NCBI GenBank assembly: GCA_037444445.1
Contig: JBBIMK010000035.1
Location: 1 to 16,388 of the forward strand
Origin: a bacterium
Lineage (GTDB): Bacteria; UBP7; UBA6624; JBBIMK01
DNA length: 16,388 nucleotides
Direction of reading: 5' to 3'
Positions 3,885 through 16,388 of the stretch are shown piece after piece. A program made the position numbers and the translations under genes. The notes under the pieces were generated by a model. The model made no database searches and was not told the DNA's origin. It saw only the letters and a list, made by a program, of their open reading frames with translations. How positions within the stretch are numbered: position 1 is the stretch's first letter; each line of letters starts with the position of its first letter.

Positions 3885-4991
3885 CTATTGTAACACAAAT
3901 GGTTTTGGTATAAAAGAGGTCAGGACCACGCACTGTCCATTCTGTATGGCTACCGTTTCTTCCAGGCGGATACCAAACCGCCCGGGAAGGTAGATGCCGG
4001 GCTCAATGGTCACTATCATATCGTTGTTCAGCGTGTCCTCTGATAGGCTGGAAAGGCGGGGGAGTTCGTGGACTTCCAGGCCAAGGCCGTGTCCGAGACC
4101 ATGTCCAAATGCTTCGCCATAGCCAGCGTTCTGAATCACAGAGCGAGCCGCAAAGTCCACTTCCCGCGCCGGAATCTTCTCTCCAAGAGCAGATATAGCC
4201 GCCTCTTGTGCTCTTTCCACGACCTCAAATACTTCTTTCACCTCTTTAGACAGTGAACTACCCAGGACGAAGGTTCGCGTCACATCCGAGCAATAACCGG
4301 AAACACACGCCCCCGCATCCACCGTTACCACATCCCCTTCCTCAATCTTTTTCTCCGAAGGAGTTCCGTGGGGCATAGAAGTGCGGACACCGGATAGCAC
4401 GATGGTGTCAAAAGCCTTTCCATCCGCCCCTTGCTTTTGCATCGTATAATCCATCTCCAGAGCCGCCTCTCTCTCCGTCATCCCGGGCTTTAACGCCTGG
4501 AATAAATGCTGGAATGCACTCCCCAGAACCCGGCAGGATTCTTGAATCAGTCGAATCTCTTCAGGGGATTTGAATGCCCTGTGATGCTCAATCATCCCGC
4601 TACAGGGCACCCATTCTACCGCAGGTAGGATTTCCTTGAAAGCGTTCCACTCTTCCACCGTCACCAGATGGGATTCAAATCCAATTCGCTGAGGGTGGCT
4701 TTTCTCCACCTCTTTCAGCACGAACTCCCTGATTTTTGTGGCAAACATCGTGCCCTCCACATAGAGGTCTCCTTCCGCCAGTGCCCCCGCCTTTTCCTGG
4801 TAACGAAAGTCCACATACAGAGTGGTTCTTCCGGGCGCCAGGTAGAGATACCCTTCCGACCCATAGAAGCCGGAAAGGTAATAGCGGTTATACACCGAAT
4901 GAATCAGGAATCCGTCCAGTTTCTGCTCCACCAGCCACCGATAAACCTTATCCCGCCGGGGGGCAAAAATCTTTTTCTCTCCTTCCCTCAT
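3885..4991 (-). CDS. M24B-family Xaa-Pro aminopeptidase/dipeptidase (creatinase-like N-domain plus pita-bread catalytic domain)
   Basis: 368-aa ORF with an ATG start preceded by AAGGTGAGGA. Metal-ligand motifs DAGACVSGYCSDVTRTF, HGLGHGLGLEVHE and TIEPGIY..RLEE are typical of PepP/PepQ-type M24 peptidases. Confidence 0.85.
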   Translation of the reverse strand: MREGEKKIFAPRRDKVYRWLVEQKLDGFLIHSVYNRYYLSGFYGSEGYLYLAPGRTTLYVDFRYQEKAGALAEGDLYVEGTMFATKIREFVLKEVEKSHPQRIGFESHLVTVEEWNAFKEILPAVEWVPCSGMIEHHRAFKSPEEIRLIQESCRVLGSAFQHLFQALKPGMTEREAALEMDYTMQKQGADGKAFDTIVLSGVRTSMPHGTPSEKKIEEGDVVTVDAGACVSGYCSDVTRTFVLGSSLSKEVKEVFEVVERAQEAAISALGEKIPAREVDFAARSVIQNAGYGEAFGHGLGHGLGLEVHELPRLSSLSEDTLNNDMIVTIEPGIYLPGRFGIRLEETVAIQNGQCVVLTSFIPKPFVLQ

Positions 4992-7589: not shown

Positions 7590-7684
7590 TTTTGGCGGAG
7601 GAACTTTCTCCGGTGCATCTTACTGCGATGGCGAAAAACTGACAAATGTCATTGTTTTGGGGGAAGAGAGGTGTTAGGGTATCA

Positions 7685-7704
7685 TTGAATGAACATTCAT
7701 TCAA
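7685..7704. promoter_or_regulatory. perfect 9-2-9 palindrome TTGAATGAA-CA-TTCATTCAA, candidate TetR operator
   Basis: Read directly from the sequence. The arms are exact reverse complements. The palindrome straddles the ATG (7689) of the TetR gene at the head of the cassette, in the divergent 99-bp intergenic region. Confidence 0.45.
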
Positions 7705-8348
7705 CTGTGAAAAAATTTTCAGAAAACAGGGGAAAAGCCCGAAATGACCGCAGAGAGGAAATCCTTCGCTCCGCCGCCAGTGCCTTCCAGAAAAAGGGCT
7801 TCCTCGGCACCACCATGCAGGACATCTCCCGTCAATTGAAAATGACCCAGGGAAACCTCTACCACTACTTCAAAAATAAACAGGACATCCTCTTCCAGTG
7901 CCACGACTACTCCTTGAACCTCGTTTTACAGGAACTGGAAAGAATTCAAAATTCCCCCCTTTCGCCAGAGGAAAAACTCCGTGCTCTCATCCTGTTCCAT
8001 GTGGGAGTGATGGTGGACGAACTTCAAGCCAGCGCTATGGTTCTGGAGCTTCATGCCCTTTCCCCTGCCCGCTTGAAGAAGATTGTTCAAAAGAGGGATG
8101 CGTATGAAAGAGGGGTGCGGGAAATTATATCGGAAGGGATGAACCTGGGGATATTTGAGGATTATGACCCGAAACTGGTGGGCTTTTTCCTCTTCGGCGC
8201 CATCAACTGGCTCGTCCGCTGGTTCAACCCCGTAGGGCAGCGCTCGGCGAAAGAAGTGGCAGAAGCCTTCTCTAACCTCTTCATAGACGGCTTGAGAAAA
8301 AGGGTTGAAAAATCAACCGGAACGGAAAAGGGTGAGAAACGGCAATGA
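7689..8348 (+). CDS. TetR/AcrR-family transcriptional regulator
   Basis: 219-aa ORF. The N-terminal HTH EEILRSAASAFQKKGFLGTTMQDISRQLKMTQGNLYHYFKNKQDIL is a canonical TetR_N signature. It lies 40 bp upstream of, and co-oriented with, the reductase genes. Confidence 0.88.
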   Translation: MNIHSTVKKFSENRGKARNDRREEILRSAASAFQKKGFLGTTMQDISRQLKMTQGNLYHYFKNKQDILFQCHDYSLNLVLQELERIQNSPLSPEEKLRALILFHVGVMVDELQASAMVLELHALSPARLKKIVQKRDAYERGVREIISEGMNLGIFEDYDPKLVGFFLFGAINWLVRWFNPVGQRSAKEVAEAFSNLFIDGLRKRVEKSTGTEKGEKRQ

Positions 8349-8388
8349 ATGTCGGACGGAAAAATAAAACCTCAGGGAGGGCAAGAGA

Positions 8389-9516
8389 ATGAAACCCTTC
8401 AGCGACTGGTATCATCACAGGCACGAATATGCGAAGGAGTGGAAAAAACGAACCGGTGGTAAAGTGTTCGGCTACTTCTGCACCTATGTGCCGGAGGAGA
8501 TTCTATATGCAGGGAACATCCTCCCGGTGCGAATCTTAGGCAGTCATGAGCCTCAGGATGTAACCGAGCCTCATATTTTTTCTATGTTCTGCCCTTTCTG
8601 TCGGGATTGCCTGGCGCAGGGGCTGAAGGGGCGTTATGACTACCTGGACGGGATTGTGATTGCGCAATCCTGCCTTCATATCCGGCAGGCTTTCACTTCC
8701 TGGCAACTCCACATCCCCACACCCTTCTCGTACTACATCCCTTTCCCTGTGAATCTGCAAAGCCCAAGGGCATTGCCCTATTTGACTGAAGAGCTCCGGC
8801 AATTCAAGCTCTCCGTGGAAAACTGGCTGGGGAAGCCCATCGCGGATGAGGACCTGGATAGAGGGATTGAAGTGATGAACACCCACCGCAGATTGCTCAT
8901 GGAACTTTACTCTACCCGAAAATCAGAGAATCCTCCGATAACGGGTTTGGACGCCATGTATGCCGTAGTGTCCAGCCAGATAGCGGACAAGACGGAGCAT
9001 AATCAGGCGCTGACAGAAGTGCTGGATAACCTGCGCCGCTCTCCATCCCAGGGAAGCCATCGGGGCAAGGTGCGCCTAATGATTTTAGGAAGCGAGGATG
9101 ATGATACGGAATTTGTAAAGATGGTGGAGTCCGTCGGAGCCATCTTTGTGATAGATGAGCATTGCACGGGAACCCGGTATTTCTGGGAGGAAGTGAAGCC
9201 CGATGGGGATCGTCTGAAGGCGATTGCGGAGCGGTATATTCGGAGACCGCCCTGCCCGAGCAAGGACTGGCCCGAGCGGCGCCGGATTCCCCACATTCTT
9301 TCCCTGGCGAAAGAGTATCAGGTTCAGGGGGTCATCCTGATACAGCAGAAATTCTGCGACCCTCACGAGTTGGATATTCCCGCTATCCGGCAGGCTTTCA
9401 AGGAGGCGGGCATACCCACCCTCTTTTTAGAGTTTGATGTCACGGTTCCATACGGGCAGTTCCGCACCCGTGTGGAAGCCCTGCTGGAAACCATTCAACA
9501 GGAGGAATTATTCTGA
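8389..9516 (+). CDS. bzdN: Bzd/Bcr-type ATP-dependent aryl-CoA reductase core subunit (BzdN/BcrC/BadD-like; HgdB-type 2-hydroxyacyl-CoA-dehydratase fold)
   Basis: 375-aa ORF with an ATG start preceded by GGGAGGG. The motif [22 protein letters not shown] is typical of the BcrC/HgdB family. Conserved Cys at [19 protein letters not shown] and KFCDPH. Size and position (first of four) match bzdN/bcrC. Confidence 0.78.
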
Positions 9517-9517
9517 A

Positions 9518-10822
9518 ATGAAAAAGTATAAAACAGAGCCGTTGAAATGCTGGGGGAAGGCGAAGGAGCTTCGGATGGCGTATTATAAAAATTACGCTTC
9601 CGCGAAGGAGAAAGGCGGGCTACGATGGGCTGGCGGAGCCTGGTCGTTTGATGCCATCCCTCAAGGTCTGGGCGACGATGTCTATCCTCTCACCGGTGAG
9701 CCTTATGCCGCTTCCATCGCCTGGATGAAAGACTTTGCTCTCCAGTGCCAGGAAGCGGTGGAACGCGCAGGCTTCGCTCATGATTTGTGCTCTTATATGC
9801 GAAATTACTGGGGCTCCGTCCTCTTGAATCAATACGCCTTCGGCGGGCCTTTCCCCAGGCCGGATTTTATCTGGCAGAACCATATTTGCTGTAGCCATGC
9901 CAAATGGTATCAGGTGGTCAGGGAACTGGAGAAGCGCGACATCCCGATGTATTCCATAGATGTCAGCGTGGGTCCCTTCAAGGAATTGACCCCGAGCAGG
10001 GTGGATTATATTGTCGGGCAGATGCTGGATGGCATTGAGTTCCTGGAACGAGTAACCGGCAGGAGTTATGATGACGAAAAACTGATTCAAGCGGTCTACA
10101 ATCACTGTCGAACCTCCTCCGTTTGGGCGGAGATTTGTGCACTGAATAAAACAGTTCCAGCCCCCCTGGAGGAGAAAACGATGTATTCCCTGTATGTATT
10201 CGGCACTCTCCATAAGAGCAGTCAGTGGGTTGCGGATTTCTATGAAGAACTAAGGGATGAAGTGGCCGAGCGAGTTCAGAGAGGAATCGCCGCCATTGAG
10301 AACGAGAGGTGCCGGGTCATCACGGACACCCAGCCACCCTGGGGCTTTTTGAATGTCTTCCGCTACCTGGAAAAATACGGTTGCATTTCCGTGGGTTCTT
10401 TATATACCTTCGGCCTCATCGGCGCCTGGGAAATCAAGCCCGATGGCACCTGGGGCCCCAAAACCACACCCCAGCAGAAAGGCATCCTGTTGAAAGGGCG
10501 AGAAGAAGCCCTCCGATATCTAACAGAATGGGAACTTTCCAAGCCCGAGTGGCAACACTTCTATCATCCTCAATTGAAATCAGAAATGCTCCTTCGCATC
10601 GCGAAGGAGTGGAAACTGAATGGCGTGATATTGCACTACAATCGGGGATGCGAAGGGTTGAGCCTCGGGATTGCGGAGAACCGCCTCGCCATCATAAAAG
10701 CGGGTATCCCGGTGATGGTGTTTGAAGGGAATATGGGCGATGAACGGGAATTTGACGAGGCCAGAACCATTTCCCGTATTGATGCCTTCATGGAAAGTTT
10801 AGGGATGGTGAAAACCGGATGA
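9518..10822 (+). CDS. bzdO: Bzd/Bcr-type ATP-dependent aryl-CoA reductase core subunit (BzdO/BcrB/BadE-like; HgdA-type fold)
   Basis: The ORF track starts at 9434, inside the previous gene. ATG 9518, one nt after the bzdN-like stop (TGAAATG), gives a 434-aa protein. It begins [23 protein letters not shown], which I recognise as the BzdO/BcrB-type N-terminus. The C-terminal HYNRGCEG...[13 protein letters not shown] is typical of the family. Confidence 0.78.
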
Positions 10823-11589
10823 TTTACGCAGGATTGGATTGTGGAGCGAGGAATACGAGGGCTCTTCTGTGGGATGGGAAGGGCATTTTAGCACGAAGCA
10901 GTCATCTGACAGGCTTTGAGCCGAGAATCGTGGCGAAAGAGGTTCACATAGAGGCTCTACGGGCAGCGGGTGCGGAGTGGCAGGATGTGGCGCATATCAC
11001 CGCCACTGGCACCGGAAAAGGGTCCGTGGACTTCGCCCACAGCACCATCACGGAAGTCAGCGCCAATGCCAGAGCCATTTCCTTCCTCTTCCCACGGGTT
11101 CGCACATTGATTGATGTGGGAGCGGAGGAGGGCAGAGCCATCAAAATGGATGCGTCGGGGAAAGTGGTGGACTTCGCTATCAATGAAAAATGTGCCGCCG
11201 GGGCAGGAACTTTTATTGAGACGATGGCACGGGCCCTGGAGGTGTCGCTGGAAGAAATGGGGCCCCTGGCCCTCCGCTCCTCTCGCTCTGTGCCTATGAA
11301 CGCCCAGTGCGCTGTATTCGCTGAATCTGAGGTGGTCTCCCTCATCCACTCCAGAACCCCCAAGGAGGACATCGCCCGCGCTATTCATGACGCCATTGCA
11401 GAACGAATCTCCTCTCTGGTCCGAAGGGTGGGAATGGAACAGGATGTGGCTTTAATCGGAGGTATGGCGAAAAACATCGCATTCTACGAAGCCCTGAAGC
11501 GGAACCTGGGCGTGGAGATTATCCTGCCTTCTGATGTGGACTTCATCGGTGCGCTGGGTGCCGCTCTGACGGCTGAAGAAAGAAGGTGA
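10819..11589 (+). CDS. bzdP: BcrD/BzdP/BadG-type ATPase subunit (ASKHA fold, [4Fe-4S]-bridging, HgdC-activase-like)
   Basis: 256-aa ORF whose ATG overlaps the previous stop (ATGA). The cluster Cys motifs [13 protein letters not shown] and [12 protein letters not shown] and the adenosine motif LIGGMAKN are present. The phosphate-1/2 motifs are divergent ([22 protein letters not shown]). Confidence 0.78.
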
Positions 11590-11590
11590 G

Positions 11591-12472
11591 ATGCAGATGG
11601 AAAAATCGTCTAAAGAATACTGGCGCTGGCCAGAGACCCGCTGGACTTCTCCCGATATGGACTGGCATTCCGCAGGCGTTCTGACCGCAGGGGTAGATGT
11701 GGGCTCTGTATCCAGCCAGGCTGTCATCCTCGCAGATGGAAATCTATTCGCCTACAGCAACTGCCGAACGGGCTCCAGTAGCCCGGAGTCCGCTCAAAAG
11801 GCTCTTGCCTGGGCGATGGAAGGCACTGGAATAAAGATGGAAGACATTCGGTATATCGTGGGCACAGGCTATGGGCGGGTGAATATCCCCTTTGCGAACC
11901 GGGCGATAACGGAGATAGCCTGCCATGCCCGGGGCGGGAATTTTATCTACGGTCCCTCCGTTCGCACCATCCTGGATATGGGAGGACAGGATTGTAAAGC
12001 CATCCGGTGCGATGAGCGGGGAAAAGTCACGGAATTCCTGATGAATGACAAGTGCGCAGCGGGAACCGGACGCGGAATGGAAGTCTTCGCCGACTTGATG
12101 GCTGTCCCCATCGAAGAAATCGGGAATATGTCCCTGGATGTAGAGGAAGAGCCACCGCCAGTCTCCAGCACCTGTGTGGTGTTTGCCAAGTCGGAGGCGA
12201 TTGGGTTATTAAGAGGAGGCTGGCCCCTGAAGAAAGTCCTTGCTGGCTACCATTCTGCTATGGCGCATCGGGTGGTGGAACTCCTGGGCAGGCTGGGTGT
12301 GGAGAAGGAGTTCGCCATCACCGGCGGAATCGCAAAAAATGTAGGCATCGTGAAAAGAATTGAGCGAGAGCTGGGAATTACTGCCCTGAAACCCACCCTG
12401 GACCCCCAGATTGCCGGCGCTCTGGGGGCAGCGCTCTTCGCCAGAGCCCTTTACGAAAAGGAGAAGAAATGA
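11591..12472 (+). CDS. bzdQ: BcrA/BzdQ/BadF-type ATPase subunit (ASKHA fold, [4Fe-4S]-bridging)
   Basis: 293-aa ORF whose ATG lies 1 nt after the previous stop. It has the N-terminal extension KEYWRWPETRWTSPDMDW, then canonical GVDVGSVSSQAV, DMGGQDCKAI, NDKCAAGTGRGME, SSTCVVFAKSEA and ITGGIAKN. Two different small (~30 kDa) ATPases fit the Azoarcus/Bzd-type rather than the Thauera type, which has a ~48 kDa BcrA. Confidence 0.78.
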   Translation: MQMEKSSKEYWRWPETRWTSPDMDWHSAGVLTAGVDVGSVSSQAVILADGNLFAYSNCRTGSSSPESAQKALAWAMEGTGIKMEDIRYIVGTGYGRVNIPFANRAITEIACHARGGNFIYGPSVRTILDMGGQDCKAIRCDERGKVTEFLMNDKCAAGTGRGMEVFADLMAVPIEEIGNMSLDVEEEPPPVSSTCVVFAKSEAIGLLRGGWPLKKVLAGYHSAMAHRVVELLGRLGVEKEFAITGGIAKNVGIVKRIERELGITALKPTLDPQIAGALGAALFARALYEKEKK

Positions 12473-12756
12473 TTGCCCATTACGGGTATAAGGATGGCTC
12501 CGGTGAGTATTTCATCGGGATTGATACCGATAAATGCGACGGGTGCGGCAAGTGCGTCCCTGCCTGCCCCTACAATGTCCTGGAGATAGGGGAGGATGAA
12601 AATGACCCCTTCCGAGAACTACCTGTGGCAAAAGTCGTGGAAGCGGAGAGGAAGAAGATTAAGTACACCTGTGCTCCCTGTAAGCCCGTAGCCGGCAGGA
12701 AAGAGTTGCCCTGCATCCTCTCCTGCCCTGTGAATGCCATTTCTCACTCCTGGTAA
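12469..12756 (+). CDS. 2x[4Fe-4S] ferredoxin with a non-canonical second cluster motif (BzdM-position ferredoxin)
   Basis: 95-aa ORF whose ATG overlaps the bzdQ-like stop (ATGA). Cluster I is C23-x2-C26-x2-C29-x3-C33-P. Cluster II is C68-x2-C71-x10-C82-x3-C86-P. Its position directly after the ATPase genes mirrors bzdM in the Azoarcus bzd cluster. Confidence 0.8.
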   Translation: MIAHYGYKDGSGEYFIGIDTDKCDGCGKCVPACPYNVLEIGEDENDPFRELPVAKVVEAERKKIKYTCAPCKPVAGRKELPCILSCPVNAISHSW

Positions 12757-12833
12757 AATGCCCGCCCCCTGCCATTTCCATCGTGGCAAAGAGAGGAAGT
12801 GCCCCCGCCTTCTGACCCTGCTATACAAAAACG

Positions 12834-15365
12834 ATGAATAGAGTTTCACTCTATATGAATGGCAAGCAGGTTCAAGCATCGGCAGGAACTTCCCTCTTAG
12901 AGGTTGCGTGGCAGGCGAACATCTATATTCCCCAGTTGTGTGCTCATCCTGCCATACCCTTTTCCATCGGTAGCACGAAGGTTTCTCCTCCACCGACGGA
13001 ATCCATTTTTATCGGTGGACAACAGTTCTATCATGAAAGAGTTAGCAAGGAATATGAAGGATGCGGGCTGTGCCTGATTTCCATAGAAGGCAGGGAAGAG
13101 TTTTTCCACGCTTGCACCACCCCTTCTGCTGAGGGAATGAAGATATGGACGGATACCCCCGCACTCAGAAGGGAGAGGCAGAAAAGGCTTTCCTCCATTC
13201 TAACGAATCATCCTCATGCTTGCCTGACCTGTGCACAAAATCGCGGGTGTAGTCTCACTCAGTGCTCCAGCAATGTTCCCATCGGGGAGCGATGCTGTCC
13301 TGTGTTCCAGGAGTGTGAATTGCGAAAGGTGGCAGAATATGTGGGCATCCCTCCTGATGCCCCTCGCTACATCCCGAAGGGGCTTCCTGCCGCAGATGAT
13401 GACCCTCTGATTCTAATGGATTTTAACCTGTGTATCTCCTGCCTCCGGTGTGTAAGGATTTGTGTGGATGTTCGTGGAGTGGGCGCCCTCGGATACATCT
13501 TTCAGGATGGGAAAGTTCTGGTGGGAAGCCGGGCTCCCACACTTCGGGAATCGGCCTGCCGTTTCTGCCTGTCCTGCGTAGAAGTGTGCCCCACAGGCGC
13601 CCTGAGAGATAAAAAATCCTATTATACCAGAAAGGTTCCCTGCCAGTCTGCTTGCCCGGTGGGAATGGATGTGCCGAATTATATTCGGGCAATCGCTCTA
13701 CGGGATTATCCAACATCCATCCGATACATTTCCGGAAACATCCCCCTTACTTCCTGCTTGAGTAGAGTTTGCCACCATCCCTGTGAATCTGCATGCTTGC
13801 GGAATGAACTGGACGAGGCGGTTGCTATCTGTGGGCTGAAACGGTTCGCCTTAGACCAGACTGGATGGCTTTCCGATTTTACACCACCATCGGAGAACGG
13901 CAAGAAAATAGCCATCATAGGCTCCGGACCCGCCGGGCTTTCCGCTGGCTATTATTTAAGGAAAAAAGGCTATGATGTGACTGTGTTTGAGAAGGAACCC
14001 TCCGCTGGCGGGATGCTACGAATGGGCATTCCTCGCTTCCGCCTGCCAGAAGAGATTCTTCAAAAAGACCTCTCTGGTCTTCAAAATATGGGCATTAAAA
14101 TCCGTGCTGGCGTTGCCATAGACAATCCTGCCTCCCTTTTGGGCTTAAAGGAACAGGGCTACCAGGCCATCTTCATCGCCACCGGTGCGGGCTTAGCCAA
14201 AAAAATCCCCTTGCCCGGAGTTGAGAATGAGGAGGTCTTCTGGGGACTGGATTTCCTGAAAAATGTTGCCGCAGGCTTTTCCCCTGATTTCCGTGGGAAA
14301 AAAGTGGTGGTCATCGGCGGAGGAAATGTGGCGATGGATGTGGCCCTGACTGCAAGAAGATTCGGCGCCTCCTCCGTGAACATCGTTTGCCTGGAAAGAA
14401 GAGATGAAATGCCTGCCTTTGAAAAAGAGATAGAGAATGCCATAGAAGAAGGAATCGTTCTCCATCCTAACTGGGGCCCCAGACAAATTCTGTGTGCGAG
14501 TGGCAGGGTTTCTGGCGTGGAATTTATCCTTTGCACCAGGGTCTTTGATGAAGAAAAACGGTTCAACCCCTCTCTGGATGAATCCACCACGATGACTCTT
14601 CCTGCGGATGTGGTCATCCTCGCCATCGGGCAGGCGCAAGACCTCTCCCATTTCCCCAAACCAGTGCTGAATACGGTGGGGAAAGTGTCCGTAGACCCTG
14701 CATCTATGCAGACTCCCATCCCCGGTATCTTTGCAGGTGGGGAAGCGGTGAAAAGCCCTTCCTCCGTCGTGGAAGCCATTGCCGACGGGAAAAAAGCGGC
14801 GGAAGCCATTGACCTCTTCCTCGGTGGAGACGGTATCCTGCAGGACGGATTGGAGAGTGCAGGGGAATCCCGGTTCAATCGGGACTTCCAAAAAGTATTC
14901 AAAGGGTGGCTGGGAAAACAGGAAGGATTCGCTCAACGACAGCGAGAAAATATGCCCGTCCTCCCCCTGAATCGGCGCCAGGGATTTGATGAAATTGCTC
15001 TCGGCTTCACCGAAGAAATGGCACTCCGGGAGGCAACCCGATGCCTCCAATGCGACTTACGGGTTTCCATTCCACCCGTTCCATTACCCCCCCCGAAGTT
15101 CTTCCCTTTCAATGATGAATCAATCCGACTGGCGCCAGAGATGGAAGGCGTGATTCAACTCTTGAATGAGAAAATGGAGGTGGTGTTAATCAAAGGAACG
15201 CCCAATATAAACACTGCCCTGCGGGAACACTCCGGGAAAAAAGGTGTGAAATTCTTCCTGTTTGAATTACATCCGATGTTCACCCAGAGGGAGAGCGAAC
15301 TCTTACAGGAGCACTTGAAAAAATACGGAACCCTGCCCCAGGAAGACCTGGAAGACCTCTTCTGA
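12834..15365 (+). CDS. 843-aa multidomain Fe-S flavoprotein: NuoG/[FeFe]-hydrogenase-like N-terminus fused to a GltD/NfnB-like NAD(P)H:FAD oxidoreductase and a novel C-terminal module; putative ferredoxin-regenerating enzyme
   Basis: N-terminus: [2Fe-2S] motif C36...C77-x2-C80-x13-C94; His-ligated [4Fe-4S] motif H126-x3-C130-x2-C133-x5-C139; two ferredoxin motifs C200xxCxxCxxxC and C242xxCxxCxxxCP. GltD-type N-domain: C270...C274P ... C313HHPC317ESAC321. Flavoprotein body: FAD fold KKIAIIGSGPAGLSAGYYL...VFEK and NAD(P)H fold KKVVVIGGGNVAMDVA. C-terminus: EATRCLQCDL, a Pro-rich linker and a ~90-aa terminal module. Confidence 0.85.
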   Translation: MNRVSLYMNGKQVQASAGTSLLEVAWQANIYIPQLCAHPAIPFSIGSTKVSPPPTESIFIGGQQFYHERVSKEYEGCGLCLISIEGREEFFHACTTPSAEGMKIWTDTPALRRERQKRLSSILTNHPHACLTCAQNRGCSLTQCSSNVPIGERCCPVFQECELRKVAEYVGIPPDAPRYIPKGLPAADDDPLILMDFNLCISCLRCVRICVDVRGVGALGYIFQDGKVLVGSRAPTLRESACRFCLSCVEVCPTGALRDKKSYYTRKVPCQSACPVGMDVPNYIRAIALRDYPTSIRYISGNIPLTSCLSRVCHHPCESACLRNELDEAVAICGLKRFALDQTGWLSDFTPPSENGKKIAIIGSGPAGLSAGYYLRKKGYDVTVFEKEPSAGGMLRMGIPRFRLPEEILQKDLSGLQNMGIKIRAGVAIDNPASLLGLKEQGYQAIFIATGAGLAKKIPLPGVENEEVFWGLDFLKNVAAGFSPDFRGKKVVVIGGGNVAMDVALTARRFGASSVNIVCLERRDEMPAFEKEIENAIEEGIVLHPNWGPRQILCASGRVSGVEFILCTRVFDEEKRFNPSLDESTTMTLPADVVILAIGQAQDLSHFPKPVLNTVGKVSVDPASMQTPIPGIFAGGEAVKSPSSVVEAIADGKKAAEAIDLFLGGDGILQDGLESAGESRFNRDFQKVFKGWLGKQEGFAQRQRENMPVLPLNRRQGFDEIALGFTEEMALREATRCLQCDLRVSIPPVPLPPPKFFPFNDESIRLAPEMEGVIQLLNEKMEVVLIKGTPNINTALREHSGKKGVKFFLFELHPMFTQRESELLQEHLKKYGTLPQEDLEDLF

Positions 15366-15607
15366 CCGACAAATGTCTACCCACCTGCCATTCTGAGCGA
15401 AGGGAAGAGTCTCCTGTATTGAGGGTCCAACAATCCATCCTGCACGCTTGCCAGCACGCCGATGACAGCACCACCTCTCATTGGTAATTTTTAAGGCACT
15501 TGGCAAGCGACTTGCCTCCCATTATAATAACTAACGATGCACACCCGGGCTTCAAACTTCGTTTTTCACCATTTTCCCCCAGAGAAACGGAGCGATTCCG
15601 AGGTATA

Positions 15608-15689: not shown

Positions 15690-16388
15690 GTTTTTTGTTT
15701 TCCCTTTTCTCAAATTTTGTTATAAAATATGGTCGTAGCAGATCAAGATATGAAAGGTATAAGAATTGGAAAAAGCTCTGGAGGTAGGATAGTGGTTTCC
15801 TTTCCTTATAATCCCGATTATATTTCAAAGGTAAAAACCTTTAAGCGATACCGATGGCATCCAGAAGAGAGGTGCTGGAGTTTTCCATGCAACACAGATA
15901 CGCTGGAAAGGCTGTTTTCCATATTTGATGGAGAGATAATGGATGTGGACCCCGCTCTCCAGGGAGAGACAAAACAATTTGAAGACCTGCGAAAAGAACT
16001 GATGGCGAGGAGATATAGCGCCAAGACCATAAAATCCTATATACGCTGTAATCAGCTGTTCCTGAAGTTTGTAGAAAAGTCGCCTGCTGAAATTACCAAT
16101 GAGGATGTGCGGAATTTTCTTGTATATCTTGCGGAAGGAAGAAAAGCATCTACATCCAGTTTGAACATAGCGATTAATGCATTGAAGTTCTATTATGGCA
16201 ATATTCAGAAAAGGGAGTTTATATATGAGATTAGGAGACCGAAGAAGGATAAAAAATTACCGGTAGTGTTGAGTAGAGAAGAGGTTTCGAATATCTTTTC
16301 ATCGGTTGAAAATCTCAAGCACAAGACGCTCTTGATGCTTACTTACTCGGCAGGACTTCGGGTGAGCGAAGTAATAAAATTGAAACTC
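15690..16388. mobile_element. probable left edge of an integrated element (integrase-proximal end), extending beyond the window
   Basis: An integrase gene coincides with an abrupt compositional drop. By hand count GC is 21/60 (16141-16200) and 18/60 (16201-16260), against 33/60 (9181-9240) and 29/60 (15181-15240) in the cassette. No att repeat can be confirmed because the other end is outside the window. Confidence 0.4.
15729..16388 (+). CDS. tyrosine recombinase / phage-type integrase (XerC/XerD-like), 5' fragment truncated by the window end
   Basis: It is absent from the ORF track because it has no stop in the window. The frame is open from 15726 to 16388, with ATG at 15729 and an alternative ATG at 15750. 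My translation is …MKGIRIGKSSGGRIVVSFPYNPDYISKVKTFKRYRWHPEERCWSFP… RRYSAKTIKSYIRCNQLFLKF…NEDVRNFLVYLAEGRKASTSSLNIAINALKFYY…LPVVLSREEVSNIF…TLLMLTYSAGLRVSEVIKLKL. This shows a SAM-like N-terminal core-binding domain and the first catalytic Arg box (GLRxSE) of tyrosine recombinases. Confidence 0.8.
   Translation, partial: MVVADQDMKGIRIGKSSGGRIVVSFPYNPDYISKVKTFKRYRWHPEERCWSFPCNTDTLERLFSIFDGEIMDVDPALQGETKQFEDLRKELMARRYSAKTIKSYIRCNQLFLKFVEKSPAEITNEDVRNFLVYLAEGRKASTSSLNIAINALKFYYGNIQKREFIYEIRRPKKDKKLPVVLSREEVSNIFSSVENLKHKTLLMLTYSAGLRVSEVIKLKL

Follow-up and report, generated by a model that had tools for sequence, protein, structure and literature searches.

A probable Bzd-type benzoyl-CoA reductase module encoded apart from other benzoyl-CoA pathway genes

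In Aromatoleum (Azoarcus) sp. CIB, the class I reductase BzdNOPQ is encoded in the order N-O-P-Q-ferredoxin, with a dedicated ferredoxin, BzdM, and a flavoprotein named BzdV, a putative NADPH:ferredoxin oxidoreductase (PMC5658619). The CIB genes also include those for the regulator BzdR, bzdSTU between the ferredoxin and flavoprotein genes, and downstream bzdWXYZA (hydratase, dehydrogenase, hydrolase, ligase). For enzymes of the BZD type, BzdNO and BzdPQ are predicted to be separate heterodimers that come together only transiently (PMC11971306). The thn operon of N47 and NaphS2, which encodes THNCoA reductase and bears a bzd-type annotation, is headed by a TetR gene, runs through N-O-P-Q, ferredoxin, and BzdV-like genes, and goes on with MaoC-like dehydratases, a thiolase, a TIM-barrel hydrolase, and an AtuA-like lyase (PMC6849830). 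Class I bcr genes accompanied by oah, dch, and had are reported from Aminicenantes, Thermoplasmata, Bathyarchaeota, and Anaerolineae metagenome-assembled genomes (MAGs) (PMC6472368).

We analyzed a bacterial contig of 16,388 nucleotides (16.4 kb; here, the window) that carries the same subunit set and order as the CIB system and, compared by description, the same layout as the thn operon. Unlike in CIB, the regulator is a TetR-family protein, the flavoprotein gene directly follows the ferredoxin gene without intervening bzdSTU, and no downstream bzdWXYZA genes are present. As a reading of the sequence alone had reported, the window lacks a CoA ligase gene as well as dch, had, and oah. The locus is probably an ordinary Bzd-type benzoyl-CoA reductase module, with the ligase, dch, had, and oah partners presumably encoded elsewhere in the host genome.

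Operon organization

The cassette consists of seven intact, co-oriented open reading frames on the plus strand (positions 7689-15365), which encode a TetR regulator, BzdN, BzdO, a BzdP-like protein, BzdQ, a ferredoxin, and a flavoprotein, with domain assignments at E-values of 1e-11 to 1e-208. The four central junctions are minimal. BzdN ends with TGA at 9514-9516 and, one base later, BzdO begins with ATG at 9518; BzdO and BzdP share an ATGA overlap (10819-10822); BzdP ends with TGA at 11587-11589, one base before the ATG of BzdQ at 11591; and BzdQ and the ferredoxin share a second ATGA overlap (12469-12472). The gaps are wider between TetR and BzdN (40 nt) and between the ferredoxin and the flavoprotein (77 nt). 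The longest mechanical reading frame for BzdO begins at TTG 9434. The start at ATG 9518 has an AGGAGG just upstream and gives a length in agreement with all homologues (434 to 436 aa). The gene content and tight junctions noted by the sequence-only reading were thus confirmed; the stoichiometric complex that it drew from them should be softened, given the transient association predicted for BzdNO and BzdPQ (PMC11971306).

Core subunits and the substrate pocket

The core subunits were compared with NCBI equivalog models and with the crystal structure of BzdNO from Aromatoleum sp. CIB with benzoyl-CoA bound (8S02). BzdN (8389-9516, 375 aa), an HGD-D protein and the electron-transfer core subunit, narrowly passes TIGR03190 (478 bits; cut-off, 454) and is 54% identical to 8S02 chain B (468 bits). 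BzdO (9518-10822, 434 aa), the HGD-D protein that forms the catalytic core subunit, scores 692 bits against TIGR03191 (cut-off, 449) and is 64% identical to chain A (662 bits). BzdQ, discussed below, passes TIGR03192 (422 bits; cut-off, 380), so that three subunits exceed their Bzd-specific equivalog cut-offs; no curated model is specific to BzdP or BzdV. For comparison, MbdO, HadB, and DCCP match the core subunits at only 58 to 157 bits.

With residue roles taken from the structural study (PMC11971306), 16 of the 18 named active-site residues of BzdO are conserved relative to the CIB enzyme. These include C95, C128, C380, the E65/H131 catalytic pair, W46, Y97, Q274, Y298, L302, and L383; FeS ligands are identical, and the benzoyl-CoA pocket is kept except for S44G and T125N. 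On the grounds of family and residues, BzdO is assigned as the catalytic subunit, with an aqua-[4Fe-4S] cluster and a benzoyl-CoA pocket. In BzdN, the seven cysteines of the cluster site and R53, R267, R290, H330, S239, and Q324 are conserved, and the protein is predicted to bear the [8Fe-9S] cluster of the double-cubane type. Pocket conservation in BzdO is discriminating because the pocket positions vary freely in distant family members: they diverge among 95 full-length cluster representatives at 25 to 60% identity, and W46 is already substituted in representatives at 59%, 47%, and 44% identity.

Membership in the HGD-D/BcrAD_BadFG superfamily would also fit a 2-hydroxyacyl-CoA dehydratase plus activator or a small-molecule reductase of the double-cubane-cluster type, and the [8Fe-9S] cluster is common to BzdN-like proteins and DCCP (PMC11971306). 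However, the HadB, HadC, and DCCP models yielded only 138, 176, and 196 bits against cut-offs of 750, 700, and 350, respectively, and His131 is kept in BzdO where HadB has alanine. Two distinct ATPase genes are present here, as in class I reductases, whereas dehydratases have a single activator. We consider either of these enzymes, in place of an arene reductase, highly improbable.

The S44G substitution bears on a different question, that of the substrate. Ser44 of CIB BzdO lies 3.6 to 4.0 Å from ring C3 and is hydrogen bonded to Glu65 (PMC11971306). Since glycine replaces this residue in the window and in the whole environmental clade, a shifted substrate range is possible. A Bzd-type reductase whose substrate is another aryl-CoA (for example, 5,6,7,8-tetrahydro-2-naphthoyl-CoA or a benzoyl-CoA with a meta substituent) would explain the lack of adjacent lower-pathway genes (dch, had, and oah), and S44G takes away a side chain near ring C3 (distances from PMC11971306) in an operon laid out like thn of N47 and NaphS2. 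Yet the same pocket, G44 included, is found in all 83 BzdO orthologues (69 to 98% identity), even in those encoded directly beside bona fide Oah and Had. The ring contacts W46, L302, L383, and Y97 are kept, whereas distant paralogues have A, G, E, or P at W46. None of the genes called in the close relatives L001 to L009 is annotated as a thn-specific neighbor (PMC6849830), and no thn-type downstream gene was found beside the window or within the neighbor families annotated for the 83 related loci, a survey that covered recurrent families and left those in just three loci unannotated. Specialization for another aryl-CoA is therefore unlikely.

Electron delivery and regulation

The BzdP-like protein (10819-11589, 256 aa; BcrAD_BadFG, 4.8e-46; CoA_E_activ, 205 bits) has HadI (4eht), MbdQ (9gai), and HgdC (1hux) as its nearest solved relatives, and BzdQ (11591-12472, 293 aa; BcrAD_BadFG) matches MbdQ at 219 bits. 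The two ATPases would be the halves of a heterodimeric electron-activating module. The BzdM-like 2x[4Fe-4S] ferredoxin (12469-12756, 95 aa; Fer4 and Fer4_7 dicluster matches) is the predicted electron donor to BzdPQ, and the slot after bzdQ is filled by a ferredoxin in nearly all related loci (53 to 91% identity).

The BzdV-like Fe-S flavoprotein (12834-15365, 843 aa; Pfam Fer2_4, NADH-G_4Fe-4S_3, Fer4_Nqo3, Fer4_20, and Pyr_redox_2) starts with a [2Fe-2S] plus NuoG/HydA-type Fe-S domain, continues with an NfnB/GltD-type module for FAD and NAD(P)H, and ends in a C-terminal extension that is conserved. Its likeness to CIB BzdV is by description only; homologues of ∼840 aa are 45 to 50% identical, and one carries the source name "BzdV protein." The top Foldseek folds for the AlphaFold model (pLDDT, 79) are the large subunits of the electron-bifurcating enzymes NfnABC and StnABC, with a target-normalized TM score of 0.76 for NfnB. 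The model shares the FAD/NAD(P)H and 2x[4Fe-4S] core fold with NfnB and these large subunits (5jca, 9bov, 9n5u, 8oh5), which in NfnABC and StnABC carry a formate-dehydrogenase-like domain in contrast to the N-terminal [2Fe-2S]/NuoG-type domain of the window protein. Because the operon, unlike NfnABC and StnABC, has no NfnA or HydBC-like partner, bifurcation by the flavoprotein is unproven; we predict an NAD(P)H:ferredoxin oxidoreductase. The gene identification of the sequence-only reading was correct: a Bzd-type class I reductase with its ferredoxin and a flavoprotein, here predicted to reduce that ferredoxin.

In the proposed path, NAD(P)H would reduce the FAD of the flavoprotein, whose Fe-S clusters would pass electrons to the 95-aa ferredoxin and on to the [4Fe-4S] cluster bridging the BzdP/BzdQ heterodimer. 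ATP hydrolysis would lower the electron's potential and drive it into the BzdN [8Fe-9S] cluster, from which it would reach the water-bearing [4Fe-4S] cluster of BzdO. There, benzoyl-CoA or a near-isosteric analogue is predicted to be reduced, yielding cyclohexa-1,5-diene-1-carbonyl-CoA in the former case.

The TetR-family regulator (7689-8348, 219 aa; Pfam TetR_N, 1.1e-13) has a C-terminal domain of the TetR_C_24/FadR-YsiA-like type (6.1e-30), and its best NCBIfam match, a weak one, is Bacillus FadR. Regulators of this type often sense acyl-CoAs. A perfect 9+9 inverted repeat, TTGAATGAA-ca-TTCATTCAA (7685-7704), overlaps the TetR start codon and is kept in the relatives L001 (96% nucleotide identity) and L002 (79%), where the surrounding intergenic sequence diverges. 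The palindrome is a candidate TetR operator through which the operon may be controlled and autoregulated. Among the 83 related loci, a TetR gene lies directly upstream of the cassette in 10, and a GNAT gene adjoins it in 24, usually directly upstream.

Genomic context and related loci

The left flank encodes, on the minus strand, a TsaB-like protein, TsaE, an AIR-synthase-family protein, an M24 peptidase, a cyclophilin, and a flippase-like membrane protein, and the right flank holds a truncated integron-integrase-like tyrosine recombinase, in agreement with the housekeeping genes and the integrase given by the sequence-only reading. The host lineage is nearly unsampled, with two metagenome contigs as its nearest public relatives. 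Synteny across the cassette and the housekeeping genes to its left extends to L001 and L002 (96% and 79% nucleotide identity). Synteny with L002 stops exactly at the integrase-like gene, in whose place L002 has a Had-like Zn-dehydrogenase gene directly after the flavoprotein gene. At the protein level, BzdNOPQ and the ferredoxin are 88 to 91% identical in L002, which at 79% nucleotide identity indicates purifying selection.

These flanks bear on whether the cassette arrived by horizontal transfer and is an orphan in a host without the rest of the pathway, either functionless or non-catabolic (detoxification or a low-potential electron sink). BzdO shares 79% identity with proteins of Aminicenantes. 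For the flanking M24 peptidase, relatives are absent between 53% and 86% identity and, past the four closest, never exceed 46%; this contrast suggests horizontal transfer or extreme constraint. The integrase-like gene lies immediately downstream, at the very end of L002 synteny. Against an orphan, the seven reading frames are intact and tightly coupled, the chromosomal setting of the cassette is shared by three strains (79 to 96% nucleotide identity), with the L002 protein conservation given above, there is no compositional island, and the sister strain L002 has the Had-like gene directly 3′ of the flavoprotein gene. We judge an orphan cassette quite unlikely.

An ordinary benzoyl-CoA reductase module accords with the wider distribution of the cassette, related loci being found in about 20 bacterial and archaeal phyla. 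Environmental MAG cassettes (Aminicenantes, Zixibacteria RBG-1, Thermoplasmatota, Heimdallarchaeota, Anaerolineales, Gemmatimonadota, and others) share the six-gene module and the G44 pocket, have BzdO proteins 69 to 79% identical to that of the window, and often stand alone. The order N-O-P-Q-ferredoxin-flavoprotein (∼840 aa) is present in 50/60 related loci, counting those long enough to show the full module. Benzoyl-CoA pathway genes adjoin the cassette in 47/83 loci, among them L013 from Aminicenantes, with a BzdO that shares 78% identity with that of the window. The neighbors include Oah equivalogs (554 to 575 bits; cut-off, 464), Had equivalogs (463 to 484 bits; cut-off, 339), and a protein whose top match is the 4-hydroxybenzoyl-CoA reductase alpha subunit, at 916 bits and below the cut-off of 995. 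In a neighbor-joining tree, the window clade nests among loci that adjoin pathway genes. As in the window, any pathway neighbor is lacking in 16/34 well-flanked loci.

The sequence-only reading had regarded the isolation of the cassette as unusual; about half of the well-flanked relatives are likewise stand-alone. Of the two explanations that it offered, a module with partners encoded elsewhere is favored by the comparative evidence. The step from missing neighbors to a substrate other than benzoyl-CoA is unsupported, given the equivalog matches, a pocket retained here and lost in distant paralogues, and orthologous cassettes that adjoin genes for bona fide Oah and Had proteins and for an enzyme resembling 4-hydroxybenzoyl-CoA reductase. 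The six-gene module with its own ferredoxin and flavoprotein occurs in hundreds of uncultured anaerobes, and a lack of adjacent pathway genes is common and no sign of new chemistry.

The cassette and its family assignment

The seven co-oriented open reading frames described in the sequence-only reading were all present at exactly the coordinates it gave. The gene for a TetR regulator (7689-8348) is followed by those for the HGD-D core subunits BzdN (375 aa; 8389-9516) and BzdO (434 aa; 9518-10822), the BcrAD_BadFG ATPases BzdP (256 aa; 10819-11589) and BzdQ (293 aa; 11591-12472), a 2x[4Fe-4S] ferredoxin (95 aa; 12469-12756), and an Fe-S flavoprotein (843 aa; 12834-15365). The tight junctions claimed for the cassette were likewise found when the sequence was read directly. 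BzdN and BzdO, and again BzdP and BzdQ, are joined by a TGA, one base, and the next ATG (at 9518 and 11591, respectively), and ATGA overlaps connect BzdO with BzdP (10819-10822) and BzdQ with the ferredoxin (12469-12472). Shine-Dalgarno-like motifs lie ahead of the BzdN, BzdO, BzdQ, and ferredoxin genes. Scans of the window for tRNAs and Rfam families returned no matches, and promoter and terminator scans gave background-level signals only.

The start codon of the TetR gene (ATG) is overlapped by a perfect 9+9 palindrome, TTGAATGAA-ca-TTCATTCAA (7685-7704), which is a candidate operator. The palindrome is kept in two related metagenome contigs, L001 and L002 (96% and 79% nucleotide identity to the window, respectively), while the neighboring sequence diverges; L001 stems from SRR11582170 and L002 from JGI metagenome 3300010938. 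A separate 26-nt block, GAAAAACTGACAAATGTCATTGTTTT (7635-7660), contains TGACA-aa-TGTCA and is also kept in both relatives, the surrounding divergent-promoter region otherwise diverging.

Class I benzoyl-CoA reductases catalyze the ATP-dependent two-electron reduction of benzoyl-CoA to cyclohexa-1,5-diene-1-carbonyl-CoA. The window encodes the arrangement of the BZD type, with two different BcrAD_BadFG ATPases (P and Q) after the core pair and then a ferredoxin. The Bzd-type identity proposed earlier was upheld by a search with the Bzd-specific equivalog models (NCBIfam), in which BzdN passed narrowly (TIGR03190, 478 bits; cut-off, 454) and BzdO (TIGR03191, 692 bits; cut-off, 449) and BzdQ (TIGR03192, 422 bits; cut-off, 380) also scored above their cut-offs. 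The orthology of BzdP, for which no curated specific model exists, is based on position and identity, the latter being 50 to 65% across the 80 GTDB genome loci described below and 88 to 98% in L001 and L002. The best PDB match by a wide margin was 8S02 (BzdO chain, 662 bits; BzdN chain, 468 bits), the benzoyl-CoA-bound BzdNO of Aromatoleum (Azoarcus) sp. CIB (Fuchs et al. 2025, PMC11971306). The PDB chains of MbdO, HadB, and the double-cubane cluster protein (DCCP) scored 58 to 157 bits against the window core subunits.

Three other families were considered and rejected. The Thauera/MBR type (BcrCBAD, MbdONQP) gave 55 bits for BcrB (TIGR02260; cut-off, 487), 141 bits for BcrC (TIGR02263; cut-off, 421), 58 bits for MbdO, and 115 bits for MbdN. 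A 2-hydroxyacyl-CoA dehydratase has a single activator ATPase; two distinct ATPase genes are present here, and HadB and HadC scored 138 and 176 bits (cut-offs, 750 and 700, respectively). With the DCCP reductase model NF040772 (cut-off, 350), the N-like subunit reached 196 bits and the O-like subunit 41 bits. [quoted passage not shown]

The substrate pocket and the tetrahydronaphthoyl-CoA alternative

The cluster- and substrate-binding residues named for the CIB enzyme (PMC11971306) were mapped onto the window subunits, which are 64% (BzdO) and 54% (BzdN) identical to the CIB proteins. In BzdO (CIB numbering), the three [4Fe-4S] ligands Cys95, Cys128, and Cys380 are all kept (C91, C124, and C378 in the window), as is the catalytic pair Glu65/His131 (E61/H127), the roles of these residues being those assigned in the structural study (PMC11971306). 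The ring contacts Trp46, Tyr97, Leu302, and Leu383 and the thioester-oxygen contacts Tyr97, Tyr298, and Gln274 are kept, and likewise Gln124, Glu381, and Gly382. Only two mapped sites of BzdO differ: Gly replaces Ser44, and Asn replaces Thr125. BzdN, whose double-cubane [8Fe-9S] site has six Cys ligands in the CIB enzyme, keeps seven of the nine CIB cysteines together with all of the residues named around the cluster (Arg53, Arg267, Arg290, and His330).

In the CIB enzyme, Ser44 touches ring C3 and Glu65 (PMC11971306). The corresponding residue 40 of window BzdO (9518-10822) is Gly in 83/83 environmental orthologues examined. Thus, the whole environmental clade differs from CIB, the only structurally characterized enzyme, at one pocket residue (S44G), and the rest of the pocket is common to all 83. 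The Gly44-carrying orthologues include loci that adjoin the hydrolase (Oah) and dehydrogenase (Had) genes of the benzoyl-CoA lower pathway. As a paralogue check, 1.84 billion cluster representatives, which are unnamed, were searched, and 95 full-length relatives with 25 to 60% identity were aligned. Among these, Trp46 is replaced by Pro at 59%, by Glu at 47%, and by Ala at 44% identity, and His131, Gln274, Leu302, and Leu383 vary too. Because pocket positions change this fast in paralogues, retention of the CIB pocket, Ser44 apart, is probably specific to these enzymes rather than constant across the superfamily.

The cassette could alternatively encode a tetrahydronaphthoyl-CoA (THNCoA) reductase, as in the thn operon of N47 and NaphS2, whose core order is the same as in the window: TetR, N-O-P-Q, ferredoxin, and a BzdV-like oxidoreductase (PMC6849830). 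Gene order alone therefore does not discriminate between the two enzymes. The thn operon, however, also holds specific neighbors among its beta-oxidation genes, namely, MaoC-like dehydratases, a TIM-barrel hydrolase, and an AtuA-like lyase (PMC6849830). By operon content rather than sequence comparison, the window has none of these; no called gene of the close relatives L001 to L009 carries such an annotation, and the annotated recurrent neighbor families of the 83 relatives include none of these kinds. The bulky ring contacts of BzdO are, moreover, kept. These observations make a THNCoA reductase less likely.

The BzdV-like flavoprotein

Pfam models placed an N-terminal [2Fe-2S] domain, a NuoG-type His-ligated [4Fe-4S] motif, a dicluster ferredoxin domain, and a GltD/NfnB-type module (Fer4_20 plus Pyr_redox_2) on the 843-aa flavoprotein (12834-15365). 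Its position beside bzdNOPQM-type genes and its NAD(P)H/FAD GltD-like architecture fit BzdV, for which no curated model exists. Homologues of equal length, 45 to 50% identical, occur widely in Asgard archaea, Bathyarchaeia, and Chloroflexi, and a 48%-identical one is labeled "BzdV protein" by its source. An AlphaFold model (pLDDT 79, pTM 0.73) was closest in fold to the large subunits of NfnABC/StnABC, which are electron-bifurcating complexes, and also matched NfnB (target-normalized TM-score, 0.76). The operon holds no gene for an NfnA or HydBC-like partner, so the flavoprotein itself need not be bifurcating. BzdV of CIB is a putative NADPH:ferredoxin oxidoreductase (PMC5658619), and by analogy we infer that the window flavoprotein may have the same activity.

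Two features were observed toward the C terminus. Residues 715 to 744, located after the flavin domains, match the opening ∼30 positions of the Fer4_20 (GltD N-terminal) profile and include an invariant CxxC; the cluster-binding segment may thus be permuted or split. The C-terminal ∼95 residues (750 to 843) form a conserved domain that has no Pfam match in the window protein.

Gene neighborhoods, flanks, and host lineage

The two closest public proteins (98% and 91% identical) come from metagenome contigs whose left flanks are syntenic with that of the window, and the next relatives (77 to 79% identical) come from Aminicenantes metagenome-assembled genomes (MAGs). A scan of GTDB species genomes found a BzdO relative in at least 560 species. 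The best 80 were taken (69 to 79% identity), all of them MAGs, and these span Aminicenantes, Planctomycetota, Zixibacteria, KSB1, Ignavibacteria, Gemmatimonadota, Acidobacteriota, Anaerolineales, Elusimicrobia, Thermoplasmatota, and Heimdallarchaeota, among others. Since the scan gave no match above 79% identity, the host genome is absent from the scanned set. Look-ups with the exact BzdN, BzdO, and BzdQ sequences of the window returned no record.

Neighborhoods were counted over 83 nonredundant loci. The P, Q, ferredoxin, and ∼840-aa flavoprotein genes follow in the window order in 50 of the 60 loci with enough downstream sequence. A long, Oah-like crotonase adjoins the cassette in 20/83 loci, and all four tested passed the Oah equivalog (554 to 575 bits; cut-off, 464). 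A Had-like Zn-dehydrogenase is present in 7/83, the two tested passing the Had equivalog (463 to 484 bits; cut-off, 339). A 4-hydroxybenzoyl-CoA-reductase-like protein, a gamma-alpha fusion, occurs in 7/83 loci; its top match is TIGR03194 at 916 bits, just below the cut-off of 995. Further recurrent neighbors are a short crotonase, an SDR, thiolases, and an ADP-forming acyl-CoA synthetase. In total, 47/83 loci have at least one pathway-like neighbor. In L013, an Aminicenantes locus with a BzdO 78% identical to that of the window, the cluster includes both Oah and 4-hydroxybenzoyl-CoA-reductase-like genes. A neighbor-joining tree of BzdO, with the CIB protein as its sole characterized reference and outgroup root, nests the window clade among loci with Oah/Had neighbors.

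The sequence-only reading was correct that the 16.4-kb window holds no ligase, dch (hydratase), had, or oah gene. Its suggestion that these missing neighbors signal another substrate was not borne out. Stand-alone cassettes are common, with pathway-like neighbors absent, as in the window, from 16 of the 34 loci that have at least 8 kb upstream and at least 3 kb downstream. Missing neighbors are thus frequent for a modular cassette and are no evidence for different chemistry. On this reading, the ligase, dch, had, and oah genes would be located elsewhere in the host genome.

Other genes recur beside the cassette. A GNAT acetyltransferase gene adjoins it in 24/83 loci (e.g., L013:8135-8860). In L013 this is an HTH-GNAT fusion immediately ahead of bzdN, at the place taken by TetR in the window; the fusion was called as 241 aa in L013 and as 217 aa in L004 and L006. 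In Rhodopseudomonas palustris, the bad operon is regulated by BadL, a GNAT protein. Six loci from different phyla have a 340-aa Zn-dehydrogenase next to the cassette (L002:16183-17205, L008:6969-7991, L081:15563-16591, and three more). In L002 and in Zixibacteria this protein was not accepted as Had: its best match is the Had model (TIGR03201), but the three examples tested score 230 to 263 bits against a cut-off of 339. In L081 it stands beside Oah and the canonical Had is missing from the locus, which makes it a possible alternative Had. A second set of two HGD-D subunits and two ATPases adjoins the cassette in L050 (16115-20250), L070, L076, L077, L035, and L053, from Gemmatimonadota, Ignavibacteria, and Bacteroidota MAGs, and in Gemmatimonadota directly follows the BzdV-like gene. 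The best matches in L050, BcrC (278 bits; cut-off, 421) and BcrB (220 bits; cut-off, 487), are far below the cut-offs, and the set looks like a paralogous class-I-like reductase.

The flanks are as first read, with minus-strand housekeeping genes on the left and an integrase on the right, the latter being a truncated integron-integrase-like tyrosine recombinase. The recombinase gene (15729-16388) is cut by the window end and best matches integron-integrase/XerA-type models. It begins where synteny with L002 ends (15375) and the L001 contig stops (15625), and a strong sigma-70-like promoter match (11/12) lies at 15500-15528. The cassette and left flank are colinear with L001 up to 15625 and with L002 up to 15375, beyond which L002 carries its Had-like Zn-dehydrogenase and the window the integrase. 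GC content shows no island and no step. A mobile island bounded by the integrase was rejected, given the synteny of left flank and cassette in relatives together with the lack of a GC step. A tBLASTn search of a plasmid database found only homologues with ≤26% identity and no annotated bzd cluster.

Relatives of the flanking M24 peptidase (3885-4991, minus strand) are 98, 86, 55, and 53% identical and then fall to ≤46%. Unlike this peptidase, BzdO reaches 79% identity to other phyla (Aminicenantes). The host thus belongs to an almost unsampled lineage. The cassette, far better conserved than the genes around it, has either spread horizontally or come under unusually strong constraint. In a more far-reaching proposal, the Gly44-carrying cassettes would form a horizontally mobile, self-sufficient dearomatization module. 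Its NfnB-type flavoprotein would use flavin-based electron bifurcation to make low-potential ferredoxin from NAD(P)H, with the N-terminal NuoG-like Fe-S chain as the second branch, and hosts without ring-cleavage genes, as here, would use it on a non-benzoyl-CoA substrate or noncatabolically. We consider this proposal unlikely.

As what is probably an ordinary benzoyl-CoA reductase operon, the window cassette adds to an already known and widely distributed group of reductases. Such class I genes are known in these phyla from metagenomic studies, which also remarked on the energetic puzzle that they pose (PMC6472368), and the locus adds one almost unsampled lineage to the strict anaerobes with an ATP-consuming class I enzyme. 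The comparative result is the more useful one: the reductase travels in a conserved set of six genes, among them those for its own ferredoxin and for an NfnB-like flavoprotein, with a catalytic subunit 69 to 79% identical across bacterial and archaeal phyla. The Ser44 position and the activity of BzdV are concrete targets for biochemistry, and the view of the enzyme's identity is unchanged.
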